The notes under the pieces are model-generated. The model did not search any database. It had not been told where the DNA came from and was given only the letters and a program-made list of their open reading frames with translations. Position numbers and translations under genes: made by a program. Positions 5,773 through 36,210 of a DNA stretch of 64,000 nucleotides are shown piece after piece. Every line of letters begins with the position of its first letter. The stretch's first letter is position 1. The DNA is from Ignavibacteria bacterium (GTDB lineage: Bacteria; Bacteroidota; Ignavibacteria; Tepidaquicellales; Tepidaquicellaceae), in contig JBBRMY010000002.1 in NCBI GenBank assembly GCA_038230595.1, positions 872 to 64,871 on the forward strand, written 5' to 3'.

Positions 5773-6321
5773 TTAATATATAAAATCTGAACTGATTTCA
5801 CTGAATTTTAATGCCTGAAGATCTTTTTCAGATATCACAGGCTTCTCTACCATCCAGTTTATATTCAGATCTTTGTCATTGAACAATACTGCTCTTTCAC
5901 TATCCTTGTTATAAGGGTTAGTGCATTTATAATGAAAGATGGCTTCCGAAGAAAGAACAGAAAAGCCATGAGCAAAACCTTTTGGTATCCATATCAGCTT
6001 ATGATTTTCTTCTGATAGTTCAACGGAGACATGCTTACCATAAGTCGGAGAATTTTTTCTTATATCAACTGCAACATCAAGTACTCTACCGGATAAAACT
6101 TCGCAAAGTTTTCCCTGCGCAAAAACACCGATCTGATAATGCAAACCTCTGATCACTCCTTCAGATGACTTTGAAATATTATCCTGAACAAATTTTTGAT
6201 CTCCAATCGCTTCTTTAAATTTTTCTTCAGAAAAAGATTCGAAAAAATATCCTCTGCTGTCAGCGAAAACATCCGGAATAATTATCTTAACATCCGGTAT
6301 TTCAGTGCTAATGATCTCCAC
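5773..6321 (-). CDS. rfbC: dTDP-4-dehydrorhamnose 3,5-epimerase
   Basis: FADSRGYFFESF...RGLHYQ...GFAHGF cupin motifs. Confidence 0.9.
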   Translation of the reverse strand: MEIISTEIPDVKIIIPDVFADSRGYFFESFSEEKFKEAIGDQKFVQDNISKSSEGVIRGLHYQIGVFAQGKLCEVLSGRVLDVAVDIRKNSPTYGKHVSVELSEENHKLIWIPKGFAHGFSVLSSEAIFHYKCTNPYNKDSERAVLFNDKDLNINWMVEKPVISEKDLQALKFSEISSDFIY

Positions 6322-7184
6322 TAACTTTCTTTTAAAATTCTGTCAAGGTACTCTCTGTAAAGGGAATTCGGAATAGAATCAACCAGCTTTGCAAATCCTG
6401 CATAATCAATGAATTTCATTTTAAATGCAATTTCTTCAAGGCATGCAACTTTCAATCCCTGTCGGTCTTCAATAACTCCAAAGAAATTTGAAGCTTGTAG
6501 TAATGCTTCAGGTGTTCCTGTATCAAGCCATGCGACACCTCTTCCGATCTTTTCTACTTTTAATCTTTTTTTATGAAGATAATGTACATTTACATCGGTA
6601 ATTTCGAGTTCACCTCTAAGTGATGGTTTAAGATTTTTTGAAATATTCACAACTTCATTATCATAGACATATAATCCCGGAACAGCAAAATGAGACTTAG
6701 GCTTTGCAGGTTTTTCCTCGATAGATATTGCATTACCTTCTTTATCAAATTCAACTATACCATATCTTTCAGGATCATTTACCCGATAACCGAAAATTGT
6801 AGCTCCTTCATTATTTGCAATCGCACGGTAAAGAAAATCAAGTCTTCCGTAAAAAATATTGTCACCTAAAATTAATGATACACTATCTTTTCCAATGAAA
6901 TCTTCTCCGATCAAAAACGACTGAGCGATACCATTTGGCTTATCCTGCATTCCATAAGTTATAGAAATACCAAACTGACTTCCGTCACCGAATAGCTTAT
7001 GATACCAGGGCAGAGTTTCTTCATTAGAAATAATGAAGATATCTTTTATACCTGCCAGCATAAGAATGGAGATAGGATAATAGATAAGAGGTTTATCGTA
7101 TATCAGGCAAAGCTGCTTGCTATATATTTGAGTGATCGGATAAAGCCTGGAACCGGCTCCCCCTGCAAGGACTATACCTTTCAT
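6321..7184 (-). CDS. rfbA: glucose-1-phosphate thymidylyltransferase
   Basis: MKGIVLAGGAGSRLYPIT...LGDNIFYG...VEFD...EEKP pattern. Overlaps the rfbC start by 1 nt. Confidence 0.9.
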   Translation of the reverse strand: MKGIVLAGGAGSRLYPITQIYSKQLCLIYDKPLIYYPISILMLAGIKDIFIISNEETLPWYHKLFGDGSQFGISITYGMQDKPNGIAQSFLIGEDFIGKDSVSLILGDNIFYGRLDFLYRAIANNEGATIFGYRVNDPERYGIVEFDKEGNAISIEEKPAKPKSHFAVPGLYVYDNEVVNISKNLKPSLRGELEITDVNVHYLHKKRLKVEKIGRGVAWLDTGTPEALLQASNFFGVIEDRQGLKVACLEEIAFKMKFIDYAGFAKLVDSIPNSLYREYLDRILKES

Positions 7185-9958: not shown

Positions 9959-10028
9959 GATATATGGGTAATTATAGACGCAATATTTTGCGCCTATATA
10001 ATTTGATTGATATCATAAAATAATTGGA

Positions 10029-10056
10029 TCCCCGATAAATGCATTCGGGGATGACA
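10029..10056 (+). repeat. C-type hairpin plus GACA tail (TCCCCGA-taaatgcat-TCGGGGA-TGACA)
   Basis: Perfect 7 bp stem. Located in the spacer between the SBP and ATPase genes of the ABC operon. Confidence 0.8.
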
Positions 10057-10083
10057 ATTAATATGAGATCATATTAATTGTCA
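10052..10083 (-). promoter_or_regulatory. 13 bp perfect inverted repeat overlapping the SBP stop codon (TGACAATTAATAT-gagatc-ATATTAATTGTCA)
   Basis: Together with the adjacent C-type hairpin it forms a double stem-loop between the SBP gene and the ATPase gene. Confidence 0.5.
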
Positions 10084-11110: not shown

Positions 11111-12025
11111 TTATTTCAGGTTATTATATTCTTTTTTTGTGAATTGAATTGCCTTAAGTCTCTCAAATAGTATTTTTGTACTCTCAATTTTTGCAGGGTC
11201 ATTGATAGCAAAGTAAGAATACATTTCTATATCTCCCCTGTTCATAAGAAGCTGCATTGTTCCCTGTGATTTATGCTCAGCTATTACCCAATTTGAGATT
11301 ATTTTAAAATTCAGAGCATTATTAAATCCGAAAGGAGTAGTTCGGTCGAAGCTAAATACAGGAGCGTCCGGATTAATTTTTGTTTCCGGATAACCTTCAA
11401 GCCCGGTATAGTCTGAATAAGTAGTATCAATTATATTTCTTCCGTTCCCTGCAAGTATAACCGGACGGTCTTTTAATTTCATTCCTCCAATAACTCTTAA
11501 TGCTAAAATACCTGCTGAACTATGATGAGCATGAGTTGTTTTTGTTGGCGGAAGAACCAAGACATAATTATATTTTCCGTTATTTAAAATTTCTTCAAGC
11601 CTTTTTGTTACATAGGGTACATCCCAAACACTGTCAAGGACTTCAGGAATATTATTCGTGTACTTATGATCTTTTTGATCCATAAAGAAAAAATCCTTTA
11701 TACCAACGATCTTACATCCGGCAATAAGCTCTTTCTTTCTGATGTCCGGTAAATATTTTCTTCCAACATCTTCATCAGTCAGTTCCAGTCCGTAAATATC
11801 TTCTGCTAAAGTTGAATATTTATACCCGCCTTCTCCATTAGTAATTAAGCATAGATCCGCTTTCCCGTGAAGCAAATGGGTGAACTGATAAACAGTTCCT
11901 GAAAAGGCTGCATCATCATCAGGATGTGCAGTAACTATTAATAACTTAAGTGTTGTATCGGTTTGAGAAAAAAGTTGTGTAGAAGTAAAAAGAACGAAAA
12001 GCAGTAAAATAAGTTTTATTTTCAT
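11111..12025 (-). CDS. PIG-L/LmbE family deacetylase, secreted
   Basis: Signal peptide, then VTAHPDDDAAFSG and later HHSS motifs typical of PIG-L. Lies 1 nt from the SBP gene. Confidence 0.75.
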   Translation of the reverse strand: MKIKLILLLFVLFTSTQLFSQTDTTLKLLIVTAHPDDDAAFSGTVYQFTHLLHGKADLCLITNGEGGYKYSTLAEDIYGLELTDEDVGRKYLPDIRKKELIAGCKIVGIKDFFFMDQKDHKYTNNIPEVLDSVWDVPYVTKRLEEILNNGKYNYVLVLPPTKTTHAHHSSAGILALRVIGGMKLKDRPVILAGNGRNIIDTTYSDYTGLEGYPETKINPDAPVFSFDRTTPFGFNNALNFKIISNWVIAEHKSQGTMQLLMNRGDIEMYSYFAINDPAKIESTKILFERLKAIQFTKKEYNNLK

Positions 12026-12123
12026 GTAACAATATTATGAATTAAGGTGATATTTGAAATTAACAAATTTTTGCTTGGTGGATGATGGCAGCAAATGGTG
12101 GAGCCCGAGATATTCTTCAGATG

Positions 12124-12167
12124 GCCGTTGATGACGTTCCGATAAATCGGAACTAAACACCAACGGC
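12124..12167. repeat. A-type nested palindrome (GCCGTTGGTG-ac-GTTCCGAT-aa-ATCGGAAC-taaa-CACCAACGGC), copy 1
   Basis: Outer arms gccgttgatg/caccaacggc and inner perfect palindrome gttccgataaatcggaac. Confidence 0.85.
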
Positions 12168-12235
12168 GGAGAATCAAATTTTTGCTTGATGGATGTTGGT
12201 AACAAATGGTAGAGCCCGAGATATTACTTCAGATG

Positions 12236-12279
12236 GCCGTTGGTGACGTTCCGATAAATCGGAATTAAACACCAACGGC
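12236..12279. repeat. A-type nested palindrome, copy 2
   Basis: gccgttggtgacgttccgataaatcggaattaaacaccaacggc. Confidence 0.85.
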
Positions 12280-12296
12280 GGAGAATCCTAAAGATG

Positions 12297-12325
12297 GTTG
12301 TTGGTGGAAGAGCAACACCAACAAC
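12297..12325. repeat. A-type short variant (outer arms only)
   Basis: gttgttggtg-gaagagcaa-caccaacaac. 10 bp perfect arms with compensatory C-to-T/G-to-A changes relative to the long copies. Confidence 0.75.
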
Positions 12326-12334
12326 GGCAAATAT

Positions 12335-12370
12335 AAAAAAGACCTCTCAGAGTATTTCACCTGACAGGTC
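12335..12370 (-). terminator. E-type repeated terminator hairpin (GACCTGTCAGG...CTGAGAGGTC plus T6 on the minus strand)
   Basis: 10 bp stem with one mismatch, followed by TTTTTT when read on the minus strand. Lies downstream of lipoprotein gene 12759-13466 and the three hairpin modules. Confidence 0.65.
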
Positions 12371-12403
12371 GATTTCAATACGACTCTATTATACTTTTTT
12401 GTT

Positions 12404-12483
12404 TTTTGAGAATGCGGGGGGCGATTCTTAGTTTCCCCCCTTATCTCAACTTAAAAACTTCGGGAGCCGATTCCAAAGTTTTT
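12404..12483. repeat. two-hairpin module, unit 1
   Basis: ttgaga-[GGGGGG-13 nt-CCCCCC]-tctcaa, then aaaaacttcgg-GAGCCGATT-ccaaagttttt. Confidence 0.7.
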
Positions 12484-12540
12484 ATTAATACTTTCGTTTT
12501 TATTTATACTTTTTAAAAGAACTTTTAAAATTTATTTCAA

Positions 12541-12632
12541 AATTGAGAAAACGGGGGGCGATTAGTTTAGGATTCTTAACTCCCCCCATCCTCAATTTAA
12601 AAGCTCCCGGGAGCCGAATACCGGAAACTTTT
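12541..12632. repeat. two-hairpin module, unit 2
   Basis: ttgaga-[GGGGGG-23 nt-CCCCCC]-cctcaa, then aaaag..cccgg-GAGCCGAATA-ccgg..ctttt. Confidence 0.7.
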
Positions 12633-12654
12633 ATTTGAAAGAACGATATATCTA

Positions 12655-12720
12655 CTCTCTAAAATGGGAGGAGTAATCCTCCCATGAAAATTGAGGCTTT
12701 GGGAGCCGAATCCAAAGCCT
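12655..12720. repeat. two-hairpin module, unit 3
   Basis: [ATGGGAGG-agtaat-CCTCCCAT], then ggctttgg-GAGCCGAAT-ccaaagcc. Confidence 0.7.
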
Positions 12721-12758
12721 ATCCGGAATTATCTTAATGAACCGGTTTGTTCATTTTT

Positions 12759-13466
12759 CTAATGATCATCATTACCGTCATGGTCGTTGTCTCTGAATCC
12801 ATTTTTAAAAGAGCCTCTTATATTATCATCAATCAGATCATCATTACCTGAATTAGCCGGGTTAATTATGATATTTCCGTTTTTAAACCATAAATTTTTG
12901 TTGAATACAAATGTGAAGTTTATTGCGTTGCCGTCAACTGCAACTACATTGTTCAGATTGATCACAAGGCTTGCTGACTTTCGTGATCTGTAAACAAACG
13001 GAGTTCCGTTGAATGTTCCTTTTACAATAAATGAATATCTTTCATTTCCGCTTGAACCTGTTCTGAATTCAGGATCGCTTAATACTTCATTATCTTCAGG
13101 CTTGTGGAGCTTGAATTTTATTTTACTGAATCTTCCTATAGGTAGATCACCTGTTATAAGAGATGTAAGACCTCCTGTTACATTAAAATTCGCAACAAAG
13201 GGAGCAAGGTGCAGCTCAGTTTCAACTTCAGTTGATTCCTGTTCAAGCTCTACTTCATTTATTAAAGCTTTGGCTTCGGTTATAACAATTACATCTGTTG
13301 AATTAACTACATTGTCATCTGCTTTGGCGCTTATAGTTACACTGCTTGTTGTGCTGCCAGTACCTGTTCCGGTAACTGAATTATTTTGATTGCATCCTGA
13401 AATGAATGCTGAGATGAAAAGTGCTGCAGCGAAAAATGCAGTGATCTTTAAGTTTAATGTTTTCAT
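12759..13466 (-). CDS. hypothetical lipoprotein (possibly DUF4382-like) with acidic DNDHDGNDDH tail
   Basis: Lipobox ISGCNQ and beta-rich composition. Family assignment is tentative. Confidence 0.6.
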   Translation of the reverse strand: MKTLNLKITAFFAAALFISAFISGCNQNNSVTGTGTGSTTSSVTISAKADDNVVNSTDVIVITEAKALINEVELEQESTEVETELHLAPFVANFNVTGGLTSLITGDLPIGRFSKIKFKLHKPEDNEVLSDPEFRTGSSGNERYSFIVKGTFNGTPFVYRSRKSASLVINLNNVVAVDGNAINFTFVFNKNLWFKNGNIIINPANSGNDDLIDDNIRGSFKNGFRDNDHDGNDDH

Positions 13467-13655
13467 TTTTTCTTTATTTTATTTAATAGTGTCTGAGTAA
13501 AAATTAATCAGTACGTTAATTCATTTATATTTTGTTGTAAAAAGTTTGATAATTCCTGCTAAAGTGTATAATACAGCTGATGAAATTTTCATTTTTATAA
13601 GTCCTTTGATCTTTTTCATGTAGTCTGAAATTTAAGTTATCCCGGCTCATAGTTA

Positions 13656-13925
13656 TCATTTTATTAAAAGCATTTTTTTAGTTTCTGTAATATCTCCCGA
13701 AATAAGCTTGTAGAAATATATTCCGCTTGTTAAAGCCGAAGCATTAAACCTGACCTCATAAGTACTGGGCTGCAATGATTCATTTACTAACTCTGCTACC
13801 TGCTGACCGATAAGATTATAAACTGTAACTCTTGTCAAAGATGATTTCGTAAGAGAGAATTTTATAGTCGTTTCAGGATTAAACGGGTTAGGATAATTCT
13901 GCTCAAGTTTAAAATTAACCGGGAT
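13656..13925 (-). repeat. near-identical T9SS CTD-coding segment, paralogous to 14517-14786
   Basis: About 270 nt, roughly 85% identical by eye to the 3' end of the neighbouring gene. This is far closer than to the other three CTDs in the window. Confidence 0.75.
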
Positions 13926-14474
13926 ATTTTCAGAAATTGAATGTACAGTAGTAGAAGGACTTACTGTTACTGAGCTGCTTATCGCAAAATTCCAGTCGTC
14001 TCCGGAAGCAAGACTGTCTCTATTAGTCGTAACCCCAGCTGCAAATATAGTATCCACTGTACCAAAAGCCGGAGCTGTGTAAGTGAACTGAAGCTGCGCT
14101 ATTCCGTTTACCAATGCTATGTTTGTGTTCTGAGTCAGTTCGCCGTTCATAAGATGTAATCTGGGATCAACAACTGAAAGTGAACCGCTTCTGACAGAAA
14201 TGTTCAATCCTGTTCCGGTTTTTGTTCTTGATTCAGTAAGAACTGTTACAGTGCAGGTTATAGACTGACCCGGAGTAACATTGTGAAGGTTAGTAATAAT
14301 AATTCCCAAGTTTCCGGGTGTAACAGGACCATGACAACTTCCGCATCCATCTGAAGAAGTTTTTAAAGTTCTCCCTGAGATGCCATGTATGTATGCCATA
14401 CAATATTGGGTTACAAAAATATTTAAAAAGAGAATCACAAATACCGGTAACATAATTGATCTAAAATTTTTCAT
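13656..14474 (-). CDS. T9SS C-terminal-domain secreted protein with a CxxCH motif (CGSCH)
   Basis: Signal peptide, SSDGCGSCHGP near the N-terminus, and a C-terminal QNYPNPFNPETTIKF...GIYFYKL...KKMLLIK sorting domain. Confidence 0.7.
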   Translation of the reverse strand: MKNFRSIMLPVFVILFLNIFVTQYCMAYIHGISGRTLKTSSDGCGSCHGPVTPGNLGIIITNLHNVTPGQSITCTVTVLTESRTKTGTGLNISVRSGSLSVVDPRLHLMNGELTQNTNIALVNGIAQLQFTYTAPAFGTVDTIFAAGVTTNRDSLASGDDWNFAISSSVTVSPSTTVHSISENIPVNFKLEQNYPNPFNPETTIKFSLTKSSLTRVTVYNLIGQQVAELVNESLQPSTYEVRFNASALTSGIYFYKLISGDITETKKMLLIK

Positions 14475-14516
14475 AGTGTTTCTGTTTTAATTTTACAATT
14501 TTTCTAAACATCAACT

Positions 14517-14786
14517 TTACTTTATTAAAAGCATTTTTTTAGTCTCTGTAACATCGCCTGAAACAAGCTTGTAGAAATATATTCCGCTTGGAAAAGCCGA
14601 GCCATTGAATCTTACATCATATGTTCCCGGCTGCAGTGATTCATTGATTAATTCTGCTACCTGCTGACCGATAAGATTATACACTGCAATTCGTGTTAAA
14701 GATGATCTCGTCAGAGAGAATTTAATAGTTGTCTCGGGATTAAACGGATTCGGATAATTCTGTTCCAGATGAAACTTATCCGGTAA
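14517..14786 (-). repeat. near-identical T9SS CTD-coding segment, paralogous to 13656-13925
   Basis: See 13656-13925. Confidence 0.75.
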
Positions 14787-16526
14787 CTGAGAACTTATAT
14801 TATGCACTGCTGCAACTGTAGATGTATCCAGATAAAAATTTACTGTATCCAATGAAGTGGATGAAACATTTATCTGTCTTGATGAATTCTGATATCCTAC
14901 CCTGTAAACCATTGCATTATATGTGCCTGCCGGAACTCTTGAGATATTATATTGCTGTAATGTATTGCTCACCCCGAAACCTTTATATATGCTGCCCTGC
15001 TTCAGATAAACAATTGCATCTTTATTGTAAGGGAAATTACCCGGCTGCTGCGGAGGTATATAATTCAGATATGCATAGCCGCCAACATGTAAGTTTGCTG
15101 AATTCAATCCGGTTGTATCTATTCTGAAAACATTTACATTTATATTTGTCAGATTGCCTGTAAGATTTAACGCTGTTGCAGCCGCCCAATCAACAGTTGA
15201 AGGGAAATAGGTCGGCACATAATCAAGTACATCATTTGGAAATATTATAACTCTTAGTTCCGGATTTCCCGGTACATTTGGTAAAAGATAATTGCCTGCC
15301 GAAACCACAGCAGAATCAACTATTATAACTTCCAGCGTACTGACATCTCTTCTTAATATTTTTGCGGTTCCTGAAGCTACCGGCTGATTATTATCAGAGT
15401 ATTTTACTGATCCAGAAACTGAACTTATAGAAACGCTTCCCCATCTTGAAATATGCTTTGCATATTTACCGCCTGAAGTTGTGAATTCACCACCAACATA
15501 TAAGCTTGTATCTGTTCCGAAAATATAAACATAAGTGCAATAAACTTTTTCATTCATTCCTGTTGATAATCTTGACCAGGTAACTCCGTTCCATTGCGCA
15601 ATTCGATCTACAAATACATTTCCGGTTGAATGAAAATTACCGCCGGCTATCAATAACCCTTTAAAAGAACAGAGTGTGTTAACATCATTATCCTGAGTGC
15701 CTCCAACAGGAGTCCATGAACTTCCTGAATACTGAGATATATTATAACCTGTTCCGGCTTTTCCACCGGCATACAGTATATTATTATTTACTGTTAAAGC
15801 AAAAACTCTGTCACTTCCCGTACCGAATCCGCTTCCGATGGCAGACCAAACAAGATCATCCCATGCAGCTACATTATTTACAGCAATTGAACCGCTTGCT
15901 GTATTAATCCTGCCTCCGGCTACGAGCTTAGTACCAAACAGAGTGAAAGCATAAACTTTAGAACTGTTGTTTGTATTAAAGCCGCCGCCTACATCAGACC
16001 ATACTGTTCCGTTCCATCTGCCGATTCTGTTCGCAGAAACACCGCCGGCATTATCAAATTCTCCGCCTGCATAAAGCTTTGCATTATAAACTATCAGAGC
16101 TCTCACTTCTGCATTTGTACCGCTGCCTAAAGCACTCCAGGAAGAGCCGTTCCATCGTGCTATGTTGTTAGCCGGTGTGCCTCCTGCAGAAGTGAAATTT
16201 CCGCCCGCATAAAGATCTCCGTTATAAACTACCAATGAATAAACTGTGTCACTTGGGGAACCTATTCCTGATCCGAGGGGTGACCAGGAAGAACCATTCC
16301 ACATTGCTATATTTCTGGCTAATATATCTCCTCCATAAGTAAAGCTGCCCGTAACTATAATATTACCATTGTATCTTGTGAACGCTTTCACAACTCCGTT
16401 GGTTCCGTTTATAGCTGGGCTCCCCAATGGTGACCAGTCTAAGACCTGTGAGTTAACAACTTTTATATTTCCTAAAAGAAGGGAAATAAAAAGCACGGCT
16501 AATATCTTTATAATTTTTTGTGTCAT
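14517..16526 (-). CDS. T9SS C-terminal-domain secreted protein with about 6 W-N-G-x-x-W-S repeats (beta-propeller-like)
   Basis: Repeats IAMWNGSSWSPLGSG / IARWNGSSWSALGSG / IGRWNGTVWSDVGGG / VAAWDDLVWSAIGSG / IAQWNGVTWSRLSTG, followed by an Ig-like region and the T9SS CTD. Confidence 0.7.
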   Translation of the reverse strand: MTQKIIKILAVLFISLLLGNIKVVNSQVLDWSPLGSPAINGTNGVVKAFTRYNGNIIVTGSFTYGGDILARNIAMWNGSSWSPLGSGIGSPSDTVYSLVVYNGDLYAGGNFTSAGGTPANNIARWNGSSWSALGSGTNAEVRALIVYNAKLYAGGEFDNAGGVSANRIGRWNGTVWSDVGGGFNTNNSSKVYAFTLFGTKLVAGGRINTASGSIAVNNVAAWDDLVWSAIGSGFGTGSDRVFALTVNNNILYAGGKAGTGYNISQYSGSSWTPVGGTQDNDVNTLCSFKGLLIAGGNFHSTGNVFVDRIAQWNGVTWSRLSTGMNEKVYCTYVYIFGTDTSLYVGGEFTTSGGKYAKHISRWGSVSISSVSGSVKYSDNNQPVASGTAKILRRDVSTLEVIIVDSAVVSAGNYLLPNVPGNPELRVIIFPNDVLDYVPTYFPSTVDWAAATALNLTGNLTNINVNVFRIDTTGLNSANLHVGGYAYLNYIPPQQPGNFPYNKDAIVYLKQGSIYKGFGVSNTLQQYNISRVPAGTYNAMVYRVGYQNSSRQINVSSTSLDTVNFYLDTSTVAAVHNISSQLPDKFHLEQNYPNPFNPETTIKFSLTRSSLTRIAVYNLIGQQVAELINESLQPGTYDVRFNGSAFPSGIYFYKLVSGDVTETKKMLLIK

Positions 16527-17383
16527 TATTGTTTTTTGTTAAGCTTTAATTTTTTATACTCTTCAATAGTGTGTGACCTTGTCCAGCAATCATCAAAATA
16601 TTCAGCCATAGCTTTTGCATAATTTTCATTTCTTATTATTACGTCAGATCTGTTATTTTTTGAAATCGCAGGGTTGATCAAATTTACATAAACAGCTTTC
16701 CTGTCAAATATCGCCATAGTCTGGAACACTTCATCAGTCAGTCTCACAGCACCCACATCATCCTGTAGTCCCCCTGCAATTTCAAAAAAATTCTTCTCTG
16801 TAACATTCTGCCAGATACCATCAATAGATATCTTGAAATTGTATCCGACTTCGTACAGTGTCTTTATTACTCCGCCTTGCTTCATAAAGTTCATAGAAAA
16901 CTCATCAACTTCACTATCAATATGCCCTTCCAGCTTGTTCATCAGCAGCATTTCTTTGCTTGACTCTTTCCACAGTTCCATGAATTTCAGGTCACGGTGC
17001 TTATTAAATCCCTTAATAAGCTCTACTTCCCTCTTTTCTTTAGAACTCTCTTTAGCTTTAAAGACCGGATGAAGCTTTTCAAACGATTCTTTAAGCTTTG
17101 AAACTCTTGAAGTATAGGTATCATGAAAATCCTTTTGTATCTTATCCTCTACTATTTTAGGGTCAATGATCTCATAAAGAGCAGCCGAACTGGTTGAGAT
17201 CTCATTGCATATTCCCTTTTTAGTAAAGGATCTTAAGATATCATAAGTGGATGTACGCGGGATCTTGGCTTCTTTTGCGATCTCAGAAGCAGTCATAGTT
17301 CTGCCTTCAAAAAGCACGCAAAAAACTTTCGATTCGTAATTCGTAAATCCTAAGGATTCAAGATTTTTAACTATATCTTCCAT
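16526..17383 (-). CDS. TrmB family transcriptional regulator
   Basis: N-terminal LESLGFTNYESKVFCVLFEGRTMTASEIAKEAKIPRTSTYDILRSFTKKGI winged-helix of the TrmB type. Its stop overlaps the start of the 669 aa gene by 1 nt. Confidence 0.8.
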   Translation of the reverse strand: MEDIVKNLESLGFTNYESKVFCVLFEGRTMTASEIAKEAKIPRTSTYDILRSFTKKGICNEISTSSAALYEIIDPKIVEDKIQKDFHDTYTSRVSKLKESFEKLHPVFKAKESSKEKREVELIKGFNKHRDLKFMELWKESSKEMLLMNKLEGHIDSEVDEFSMNFMKQGGVIKTLYEVGYNFKISIDGIWQNVTEKNFFEIAGGLQDDVGAVRLTDEVFQTMAIFDRKAVYVNLINPAISKNNRSDVIIRNENYAKAMAEYFDDCWTRSHTIEEYKKLKLNKKQ

Positions 17384-35545: not shown

Positions 35546-35572
35546 TCACGCAAAGCTCGCAAAGGCGCAAAG
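35546..35572 (+). repeat. R repeat copy 1 (TCACGCAAAGCTCGCAAAGGCGCAAAG)
   Basis: Internally three CGCAAAG units. Begins 14 nt beyond the Gfo/Idh/MocA start codon, i.e. in that gene's leader on the minus strand. Confidence 0.85.
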
Positions 35573-35612: not shown

Positions 35613-35639
35613 TCACGCAAAGCTCGCAAAGGCGCAAAG
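35613..35639 (+). repeat. R repeat copy 2
   Basis: Identical 27-mer to copy 1. Lies 19 nt downstream of the GxxExxY stop on the minus-strand reading. Confidence 0.85.
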
Positions 35640-35657
35640 AATTTTTAAATATTTATG

Positions 35658-36038
35658 CTATAAATTGTTAACTATTCTTTTAATACCATCTTTTAACAAT
35701 TCAACATTAAAATTGATTAAGAGACCTAATTTAATATTTGTTAGTCTCAAATATGTTAATAATATTTTACTATGGACTGGTGCAATAGCTTCAATAGATT
35801 TAAGCTCAATAATAAGTTTATCTTCCACAATTATGTCTGCTCGAAAACCCATATCTAATTTTATTGATTCATAAACAACTGCAATAGAAGGTTGTCTTTT
35901 TATATTGTAGCCAAGCTTAATAAGTTCAAAACAAAGAATTTCTTCATAAACAGATTCAAGTAATCCTGGACCTAGTGTTTTATGTATTTTAAAACATTGA
36001 TCTAGAACTGTTTTTGATAAATCATTTTCTGTAAGCAT
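35658..36038 (-). CDS. GxxExxY protein (PD-(D/E)XK-like small nuclease-fold family)
   Basis: HKTLGPGLLESVYEEILCFEL contains the G-x-x-E-x-x-Y signature. DIIVEDKLIIELK matches the D...E-x-K core. 126 aa. Confidence 0.8.
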   Translation of the reverse strand: MLTENDLSKTVLDQCFKIHKTLGPGLLESVYEEILCFELIKLGYNIKRQPSIAVVYESIKLDMGFRADIIVEDKLIIELKSIEAIAPVHSKILLTYLRLTNIKLGLLINFNVELLKDGIKRIVNNL

Positions 36039-36052
36039 ATTTTATATAATTT

Positions 36053-36079
36053 TCACTCAAAGCTCGCAACGGCGCAAAG
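36053..36079 (+). repeat. R repeat copy 3 (TCACTCAAAGCTCGCAACGGCGCAAAG)
   Basis: 2 mismatches to copy 1. Lies in the leader of the GxxExxY gene. The flanks are also homologous to the flanks of copy 1. Confidence 0.8.
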
Positions 36080-36183: not shown

Positions 36184-36210
36184 CTTTGCGCCTTTGCGAG
36201 CTTTGCGCGA
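36184..36210 (-). repeat. R repeat copy 4, inverted
   Basis: ctttgcgcctttgcgagctttgcgcga is the reverse complement of TCGCGCAAAGCTCGCAAAGGCGCAAAG. Lies just downstream of the CDF stop codon. Confidence 0.8.

Follow-up and report, generated by a model that had tools for sequence, protein, structure and literature searches.

A tandem array of two-hairpin modules, situated directly behind a lipoprotein gene of an Ignavibacteria bacterium, is very probably a new, narrowly distributed structured RNA. The array was identified in a stretch of 64,000 nt from contig JBBRMY010000002.1 (GenBank assembly GCA_038230595.1, positions 872 to 64,871 of the forward strand), here called the window, in which three modules lie at 12403-12724. 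They are read on the minus strand, like the flanking genes, within a gap of 733 nt between the lipoprotein gene (12759-13466) and a gene for a PIG-L-family deacetylase (11111-12025), both on the minus strand. Arrays of the same build stand at the same position in two related metagenomic contigs, and across the eight modules of these three genomes the stems change with compensation while the apical loop of one hairpin hardly changes. Judged from comparative sequence analysis, the motif has good support as a real feature with a very narrow distribution.

Module architecture and covariation

In each module, hairpin B comes first and hairpin A second, and the two are tightly coupled by a linker of 2-4 nt. 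Hairpin B has a stem of 9-12 bp with runs of A on its 5′ side and runs of U on its 3′ side; its 12-nt apex, GGA[WUCGGC]UCC, carries the apical loop A(A/U)UCGGCUC. Hairpin A is built of an outer stem of 5-8 bp, a small internal loop, an inner G-rich stem of 6 bp and a variable loop. Along the minus strand, the order within the gap is U3 (12724-12652), U2 (12636-12540), U1 (12487-12403) and then an intrinsic terminator (12370-12335). The features of the region, in window coordinates, are the following.

12759-13466, minus strand: lipoprotein gene upstream of the array, 235 aa, lipobox FISGC, without a Pfam or NCBIfam family
12737-12755, minus strand: small hairpin (A)UGAAC-AAACCG-GUUCA(U) between the stop codon and U3
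12652-12724, minus strand: module U3, the first past the stop codon
12694-12720, minus strand: hairpin B of U3, stem AGGCUUUGG/CCAAAGCCU, apical loop AUUCGGCUC
12654-12691, minus strand: hairpin A of U3, outer stem AUUUUC/GAGAGU (two G-U pairs), inner stem (AU)GGGAGG(A)/(U)CCUCCC(AU), loop AUUACU
12540-12636, minus strand: module U2
12599-12632, minus strand: hairpin B of U2, 12-bp stem AAAAGUUUCCGG/CCGGGAGCUUUU (two G-U pairs), loop U+AUUCGGCUC
12543-12595, minus strand: hairpin A of U2, outer stem UUGAGG/UCUCAA, inner stem GGGGGG/CCCCCC, 23-nt loop including UAAGAAUCC
12403-12487, minus strand: module U1
12453-12483, minus strand: hairpin B of U1, stem AAAAACUUUGG/CCGAAGUUUUU (one G-U pair), loop AAUCGGCUC
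12406-12449, minus strand: hairpin A of U1, outer stem UUGAGA/UCUCAA, inner stem GGGGGG/CCCCCC, loop including UAAGAAUCG
12335-12370, minus strand: canonical intrinsic terminator closing the array, hairpin 12341-12370 (GACCUGUCAG...CUGAGAGGUC) and U6 at 12335-12340; by eye it fits the definition

The small hairpin at 12737-12755 is probably outside the conserved element, since it is not seen in either of the related contigs.

The initial annotation of the window, which gave its motifs on the plus strand, had placed three two-hairpin modules in tandem between the lipoprotein stop codon and the terminator, and all of them are present in the sequence. Its inner A stems (GGGGGG/CCCCCC in U1 and U2, GGGAGG/CCTCCC in U3) and outer A stems (TTGAGA/TCTCAA in U1, TTGAGA/CCTCAA in U2) are also there, as is its B loop GAGCCGA(A/T)T in all three units. 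For hairpin A of U3, an outer stem does exist, but the CTC...GAG pairing proposed earlier is better read as minus-strand AUUUUC/GAGAGU, with its two G-U pairs.

These structures exceed what is expected by chance. A composite pattern of the module, TCGGCTCCC..GGGRGG..CCYCCC, has three matches in the window against 0.00 expected from 100 shuffles. Folded alone, each window module gives both hairpins (z = -3.9 to -4.5), and the 438 nt from the stop codon to the terminator fold as a string of module hairpins (z = -6.6). All eight modules of the three genomes fold singly into the same B-then-A architecture, with z from -3.0 to -6.5.

The related arrays were found by searching for relatives of the flanking proteins, the PIG-L deacetylase and the lipoprotein. 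The first contig (L121, from the European Nucleotide Archive) holds the closest PIG-L relative, at 87% amino-acid identity, and has the same gene order as the window; its gap of 742 nt opens with three modules (L121:3266-3558). The second (L123, from a soil-metagenome bin) carries the closest lipoprotein relative, at 63% identity, with two modules directly past the stop codon (L123:4768-4973), then a terminator and then a convergent gene. The lipoproteins of the three genomes are 63-64% identical in amino acids. Thus, homologues of the motif, on which the initial annotation had made its reading depend, do exist elsewhere, in arrays at the same position.

Across the genomes the stems vary greatly in sequence, yet they always pair. 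Among the eight modules, the inner A stem takes the forms GGGGGG/CCCCCC, GGGAGG/CCUCCC, GGGGAG/CUCCCC, GGUGGA/UCCACC and CGGGGG/CCCCCG. The outer A stem is UUGAGA/UCUCAA, AUUGAA/UUCAAU, GAGAAA/UUUCUC, AGAAA/UUUCU, UUGAGGAG/CUCUUCAA, AAUGAG/CUCAUU or AUUUUC/GAGAGU. The B stems have seven distinct sequences, one of them with the closing G-C pair switched to A-U. In a hand-made structural alignment of the eight modules, padded with N, 99.4% of 180 cells are standard pairs and 19 of 26 pairs show double-sided changes; none of 500 shuffles reaches these values, and sliding the partner by 1-3 columns leaves 41-67% paired. Because that alignment had been fitted to the structure, the real sequences were realigned with a covariance model, after which 95.8% of cells are paired and double-sided changes are again found at 19 of 26 pairs. 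RNAalifold, run on an unfitted MAFFT alignment, recovers helix B, with compensatory changes at seven of its ten pairs, as well as the inner A stem. The earlier proposal that the stems co-vary has therefore gained strong compensatory support, with 96-99% of cells paired.

On average over module pairs, the B apical loop is 95% identical, paired columns are 58% identical and unpaired columns outside that loop 42%. Selection has thus acted on pairing in three helices and, in a single loop, on the sequence itself. From module to module, identity is 45-68%, within and between genomes alike, so the array is old rather than the product of recent local duplication.

A rebuilt covariance model was then run over about 330 kb of sequence. 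The eight modules score 43-74 bits (E 5e-8 to 1e-15), and the model finds no further copy in the rest of the window, in about 85 kb of related Ignavibacteria loci, or in 63 kb around PIG-L genes whose upstream neighbours differ. It likewise has no match in 117 kb of metagenome and viral loci collected by pattern matching. The lipoprotein family has 151 members at E≤1e-5, whose source names are all Ignavibacteria, Bacteroidetes/Bacteroidota or ‘Chlorobi bacterium OLB5’; those named are metagenome-assembled genomes. At its more distant loci (L124/L125, 56% identity; L139/L140, 61%; L141/L142, 54%; L143, 53%; L144, 52%) there is no array, and another open reading frame (ORF) begins 30-70 nt past the stop codon. 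PIG-L loci with a different upstream context (L122, which has no upstream lipoprotein gene, and L146-L148) have no array either, so the array goes with the lipoprotein gene and not with the PIG-L operon.

Pattern searches of wider scope added no true copy. The pattern ATAAAAR..AWTCGGCTCCY..GGGRG has 13 matches in metagenome contigs of the Joint Genome Institute (JGI) and one in the viral database IMG/VR; none has the hairpins, and none is scored by the rebuilt model. A search of the array against plasmids and phages with blastn gave no match. The looser composite pattern was rejected as a guide: in species-representative genomes it has at least 120 loci, and the matches listed are chance ones, almost all in GC-rich genomes and none with hairpin B. 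On present data, the motif is confined to one small, poorly sampled clade, with one locus per genome.

Gene attribution, strand and competing readings

The reading preferred here, for which we see about an even chance, is that the array is a multi-module structured 3′ untranslated region (3′ UTR) on the sense strand, or a noncoding RNA derived from it, whose B apices dock a putative factor acting in trans. Its placement in a 3′ UTR, already put forward in the initial annotation, agrees with the other genomes: the array starts about 20-45 nt past the lipoprotein stop codon in all three (34 nt in the window), and a homologous terminator follows it in the window and in L123. The two terminators share ACCUGUCA..UG.AAUA followed by U6-7; that of the window has its U run on the sense strand alone. 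Between the array and the PIG-L operon, L123 has a convergent gene as the next gene, which excludes a 5′ leader in that genome and assigns the array to the 3′ end of the lipoprotein gene. Pairing also differs between the strands: read as sense RNA, the stems of the hand alignment have nine G-U pairs against a single A-C mismatch, and read as antisense they have the reverse. The spacers from hairpin A to the next B measure 11-55 nt and are not conserved; they leave little room for a promoter in front of each module. Promoter scans, with the sigma-70 consensus and with a Bacteroidota-type TAnnTTTG box, gave matches at the chance rate and were set aside as uninformative. Taken together, the locus favours a sense-strand RNA that would be co-transcribed with the lipoprotein gene or just behind it.

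From the sequence we infer the RNA rather than single-stranded DNA (ssDNA) nature of the element, the activity of the sense strand, co-transcription, and the binding of a factor with its consequence; the docking factor itself is putative. Several points weigh against this reading. The array is carried by three genomes only, its eight modules are non-independent samples, and the shuffle control ignores their relatedness. In L121 the array has no recognisable terminator, and palindromes resembling repetitive extragenic palindromes (REPs) are found there instead. The G-U count is biased to the sense strand because the stems were chosen on sense-strand folds. Folding energies are alike on both strands, the eight minimum free energies summing to -266 kcal/mol (sense) and -264 kcal/mol (antisense), and the plus-strand module resembles a compact small RNA (sRNA), with hairpin A, a terminator-like hairpin B and a U tail. 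Finally, the B hairpins resemble bidirectional terminators; if they were efficient, transcription would end at the first. Strand choice by folding energy was accordingly abandoned, as both strands fold equally well.

Against a definition of intrinsic terminators that asks for a GC-rich stem, a loop of 3-8 nt and at least five U in eight residues, hairpin B has a stem of 9-12 bp, 2-5 U after the stem and a loop of 7-10 nt (9 nt in six of the eight modules). Most of the U residues after the B stems pair with the upstream A run, and a terminator consensus scan of the modules called only an alternative small hairpin in U2.

If the B hairpins do terminate, the array could be a series of tandem ‘sibling’ sRNA genes on the sense strand, each starting near a hairpin A and ending at the B of the next module, and the last reaching to 12335-12370; in that case the conserved B loop would belong to a shared seed or to the terminator. 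The GC-rich core of the B hairpins, with an A run before and a U run after, suits such a role, and the last unit closes with a canonical terminator in both the window and L123. The module spacing of 92-147 nt also resembles that of the tandem siblings PrrF1/2, LhrC1-4 and OmrA/B. However, units running from A to B would predict the opposite of what is seen, which is tight coupling from B to A (2-4 nt) and a variable spacer from A to the next B. There is neither a recurrent promoter-like box ahead of each A nor a conserved single-stranded seed, and no complementary target turned up in the locus. We regard this arrangement as rather unlikely.

The plus strand, antisense to the genes, might instead be the functional one, each module being an sRNA of ~75 nt in which A is followed by B as terminator and by a U tail. 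On that strand B does come directly after A, a U-rich tail is present in five of the eight modules (for instance, UUUUUAUUAAU after U1), and the folds are as stable as on the sense strand, and more so for L123_M2 and L121_M1. A weak match to a Bacteroidota-style -33/-7 promoter, TTTC-N16-TACTTTTT, lies just upstream of U1. Nevertheless, no such promoter match recurs ahead of U2 or U3, spacers of 11-25 nt are too short for a promoter, and the modules nearest to the lipoprotein gene (U3 and L121_M1) lack a U tail. The stems of the hand alignment would contain nine A-C mismatches against one G-U pair, and the conserved terminator after the array is sense-oriented in the window. An antisense function is, on this balance, unlikely.

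Tandem hairpins in an intergenic gap could also be selfish DNA: a repeat like REPs, bacterial interspersed mosaic elements (BIMEs) or miniature inverted-repeat transposable elements (MITEs), with hairpins that matter at the DNA or ssDNA level, spread by a transposase and accumulated in a permissive gap. Other repeats do share the gap, namely a 112-nt tandem repeat in the window and REP-like palindromes (CTCCGTAGGAG) in L121, and these palindromes also flank a Y1 transposase gene in L121. In Escherichia coli, BIMEs likewise lie between stop codons and terminators. However, with the covariance model no further copy came to light in the rest of the 64-kb window or in about 265 kb from other loci, and the metagenome and viral pattern scans gave no true one. 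Variable stems beneath a conserved loop are the reverse of REPs, in which the stem and a GTAG motif are conserved. Modules only 45-68% identical speak against recent spread, the position is syntenic in three genomes, and the palindromes around the L121 transposase differ in sequence from the modules. A selfish origin appears quite improbable.

Even less can be said for a plain stack of duplicated terminator hairpins that serves termination only, with the likeness of the loops left over from duplication: the B hairpins are terminator-like and the first stands where the lipoprotein terminator is expected, but the B loop has kept 95% identity where the neighbouring protein has kept 63-64%, the pairs of the stems have been replaced in a compensated manner, and hairpin A is not terminator-like, yet its two-tier structure co-varies and is kept in all eight copies, so that this explanation is very improbable.

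A putative docking site and its known counterparts

Under the preferred reading of a structured sense-strand 3′ UTR, the array would be transcribed with the lipoprotein gene or just behind it and would end at the conserved terminator. Each module would form a rigid pair of hairpins, in which A is a two-tier stem clamped by G and C and B presents a near-invariant apex on a freely changing stem. This apex may be recognised by its sequence and so dock a factor acting in trans, for which an RNA-binding protein is the likeliest candidate, and two or three modules in series could allow multivalent binding. The outcome would be that the factor is titrated or that the stability or 3′-end formation of the lipoprotein transcript is controlled. 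The B stems, with their A and U runs, might also work as leaky terminators or hold up 3′ exonucleases.

A recognition site for a partner in trans is suggested by a loop that is 95% identical atop changing, compensated stems. A protein seems more likely than an RNA as that partner, because no complementary RNA target was found. In the window, the complement of the B loop has one near-match (7151-7161, in the part of RfbA that encodes the N-terminal glycine-rich nucleotide-binding region), which is about the chance rate, and no complement of the loop is conserved across the window, L121 and L123 loci. Five of the eight A loops bear UAAGAAUC or a one-base variant of it, and share GAAUC with the B loop. 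They may hold a second copy of the B-loop site or make a loop-loop contact; the latter is conceivable since GAAUCC complements the GGAUUC of the first module's B apex. A switch in which the B loop would pair with the 5′ arm of A was considered and rejected: it fails in L121_M3, where A is GGUGGA/UCCACC and B still reads GGCUCCC, and no covariation is seen.

A more far-reaching version would make the array a new class of multivalent regulatory RNA in Ignavibacteria, a sponge or scaffold in the 3′ UTR whose B apices and GAAUC-bearing A loops capture a dedicated RNA-binding protein. We consider it doubtful, with a small chance of being right; if true, it would couple expression of the envelope lipoprotein cluster to a post-transcriptional regulator.

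No named family accounts for the motif. A scan of the whole 64-kb window with Rfam 15 gave no match at gathering thresholds, in line with the initial annotation, which had recognised none. At E≤10, the stretch 12100-12800 yielded sub-threshold noise only, the best being His_leader with 26.7 bits against a threshold of 49, and the Csr/Rsm models of Rfam have no match in the window. Nevertheless, the sponges CsrB, RsmY, RsmZ and CrcZ offer a close likeness, as they also consist of serial, similar stem-loops with the same short sequence at the apex, free stems and an intrinsic terminator at the end. They differ in that the apex here is GGA[WUCGGC]UCC, and not a GGA in the loop (ANGGA-type) or a CA-rich sequence, in that there are just two or three modules, and in the position at the 3′ end of a coding gene. 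GGA does occur in seven of the eight B apices, but both G residues are paired in the stem, unlike in the CsrB/Rsm type. We know of no CsrA, Hfq or Crc partner in this lineage. By analogy, the array would work most like a CsrB/Rsm-type repeated-hairpin RNA or like stabilising 3′ stem-loops; it is not taken to be a member of either, because the apical motif differs and there is no Rfam match.

Other systems are comparable in part. 3′-UTR-derived sRNAs and stabilising stem-loops, such as CpxQ, SroC and the cry1Aa retroregulator, also have stable hairpins between a stop codon and a terminator; they are single units without a repeated, conserved apical loop. Tandem sibling sRNAs (LhrC1-4, PrrF1/2, OmrA/B and the csRNAs) share units of ~90-150 nt, a hairpin together with a terminator-like hairpin, and a conserved C-rich loop segment (here GCUCC), whereas the array couples B to A, and not a 5′ hairpin to a terminator, and has no promoter per unit, conserved single-stranded seed or target that could be found. 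Enterobacterial REPs and BIMEs are tandem hairpins between stop codon and terminator as well, and could, as RNA, shield the upstream mRNA from 3′ exonucleases. REPs come in hundreds of dispersed copies with conserved GTAG stems and REP-associated tyrosine transposases (RAYTs); within the sequence covered by the covariance model, the array was seen at a single locus per genome, its stems co-vary (58% identical) beneath a conserved loop (95%), and no matching transposase is linked to it. ANTAR dual-hairpin leaders consist of adjacent hairpins too, one overlapping a terminator-like stem, but have two hexaloops (A1, G4) and lie in 5′ leaders, whereas the loops here are of 7-10 nt (B) and 6-23 nt (A) and stand 3′ of the gene. 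Two further candidates were rejected. A ToxI-like array of a type III toxin-antitoxin system would have near-identical direct repeats of about 34-45 nt, then a terminator and then a ToxN/AbiQ-type toxin gene, whereas the modules are 73-97 nt long and 45-68% identical, and the downstream gene encodes the PIG-L deacetylase. Integron attC sites are R''/L''...L'/R' inverted repeats bordering gene cassettes; here, no RYYYAAC/GTTRRRY core sites were seen by eye, and there are no cassettes between the units.

Surroundings of the array and significance

The lipoprotein itself has no sequence match in Pfam, NCBIfam or the Protein Data Bank (PDB) that would indicate its function. Its AlphaFold model has two beta-sandwich domains (predicted local distance difference test score 82.5) and weakly matches the copper-binding protein MbnP (7l6g; E 2.5e-3, template modeling score 0.46), and its C-terminal tail is rich in Asp and His (DHDGNDDH). 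The gene belongs to a minus-strand cluster (12759-17383) that also encodes a TrmB-family regulator and a 670-aa beta-propeller protein sorted by the type IX secretion system (T9SS), and that is kept across Ignavibacteria-type loci (L121, L123, L124, L143, L144). In the window the cluster also holds a 272-aa ‘choice-of-anchor V’ T9SS protein with a CxxCH motif. Downstream, the PIG-L deacetylase gene leads an operon with genes for a phnS-like ABC-transporter binding protein, an ATPase and a permease.

The rest of the gap, from the terminator to the PIG-L start, is filled by the 112-nt tandem repeat (12064-12330, minus strand), with two copies 92% identical and a partial third. Each copy forms a long nested hairpin, GCCGUUGGUG..UUCCGAU..AUCGGAA..CACCAACGGC, with z of about -3.5 to -4. 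A TAnnTTTG box, TATATTTG (12335-12328), lies just upstream, and Rfam has no match for the repeat. By its appearance, the repeat could give the PIG-L/ABC-transporter operon a long 5′ leader of repeated, structured units. A single hairpin of similar form is present in L123, which also has the box CAAAAATTTGTTAATTT in common with the window (L123:5080-5140, and once more at 6620-6640). In U2, the apical loop of hairpin A, AGAAUCCUAAA (12566-12576, minus strand), is an exact 11-nt complement of the start of the first leader repeat, UUUAGGAUUCU (12282-12292); about 0.1 such pairings are expected by chance in a 700-nt region, and it is not conserved in L121 or L123.

Several other repeats were noted. 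The L121 Y1 transposase gene (PF01797, IS200/RAYT-like; 6099-6572) sits as an insertion between the genes for the binding protein and the ATPase, flanked by the palindromes CTCCGTAGGAG and CTCCTACGGAG (L121:5990-6670). Similar palindromes, CTCCGGAGGAGTGAAAT and CCCGTAGGG, occur downstream of the array at L121:3750-3900 and are unrelated to the A and B hairpins. In the window, the spot of that insertion is a binding-protein/ATPase gap of 122 nt (9959-10080, minus strand) with three perfect hairpins, GACAATTAATATGA..TCATATTAATTGTC, CCCCGAA..ATCGGGG and TATAGGCGCAA..TTGCGTCTATA. Elsewhere, a 26-nt motif, CACGCAAAGCTCGCAAAGGCGCAAAG, occurs four times in a gap of 690 nt, three times direct (35546-35572, 35613-35639, 36053-36079) and once inverted (36184-36210), with copies to either side of what looks like a small ORF on the minus strand (about 35650-36040).

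To our knowledge, little work has addressed post-transcriptional regulation in Ignavibacteria or their relatives, and we know of no global RNA-binding regulator in this phylum. A literature search found no reported regulatory RNA from the Ignavibacteria lineage. If the array proved to be only a stabiliser or a stack of terminators, it would add modestly to the known lineage-specific RNA motifs. Should the repeated loop serve to dock a protein, the multivalent principle of CsrB/Rsm would reach a new phylum and a 3′ UTR setting. The motif is tied to a defined locus, with genes for a TrmB regulator, T9SS-secreted proteins and the lipoprotein, and its 12-nt apical sequence could be used as bait for a partner. 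It may thus provide a testable entry point, backed by covariation, to RNA-based regulation in Ignavibacteria.

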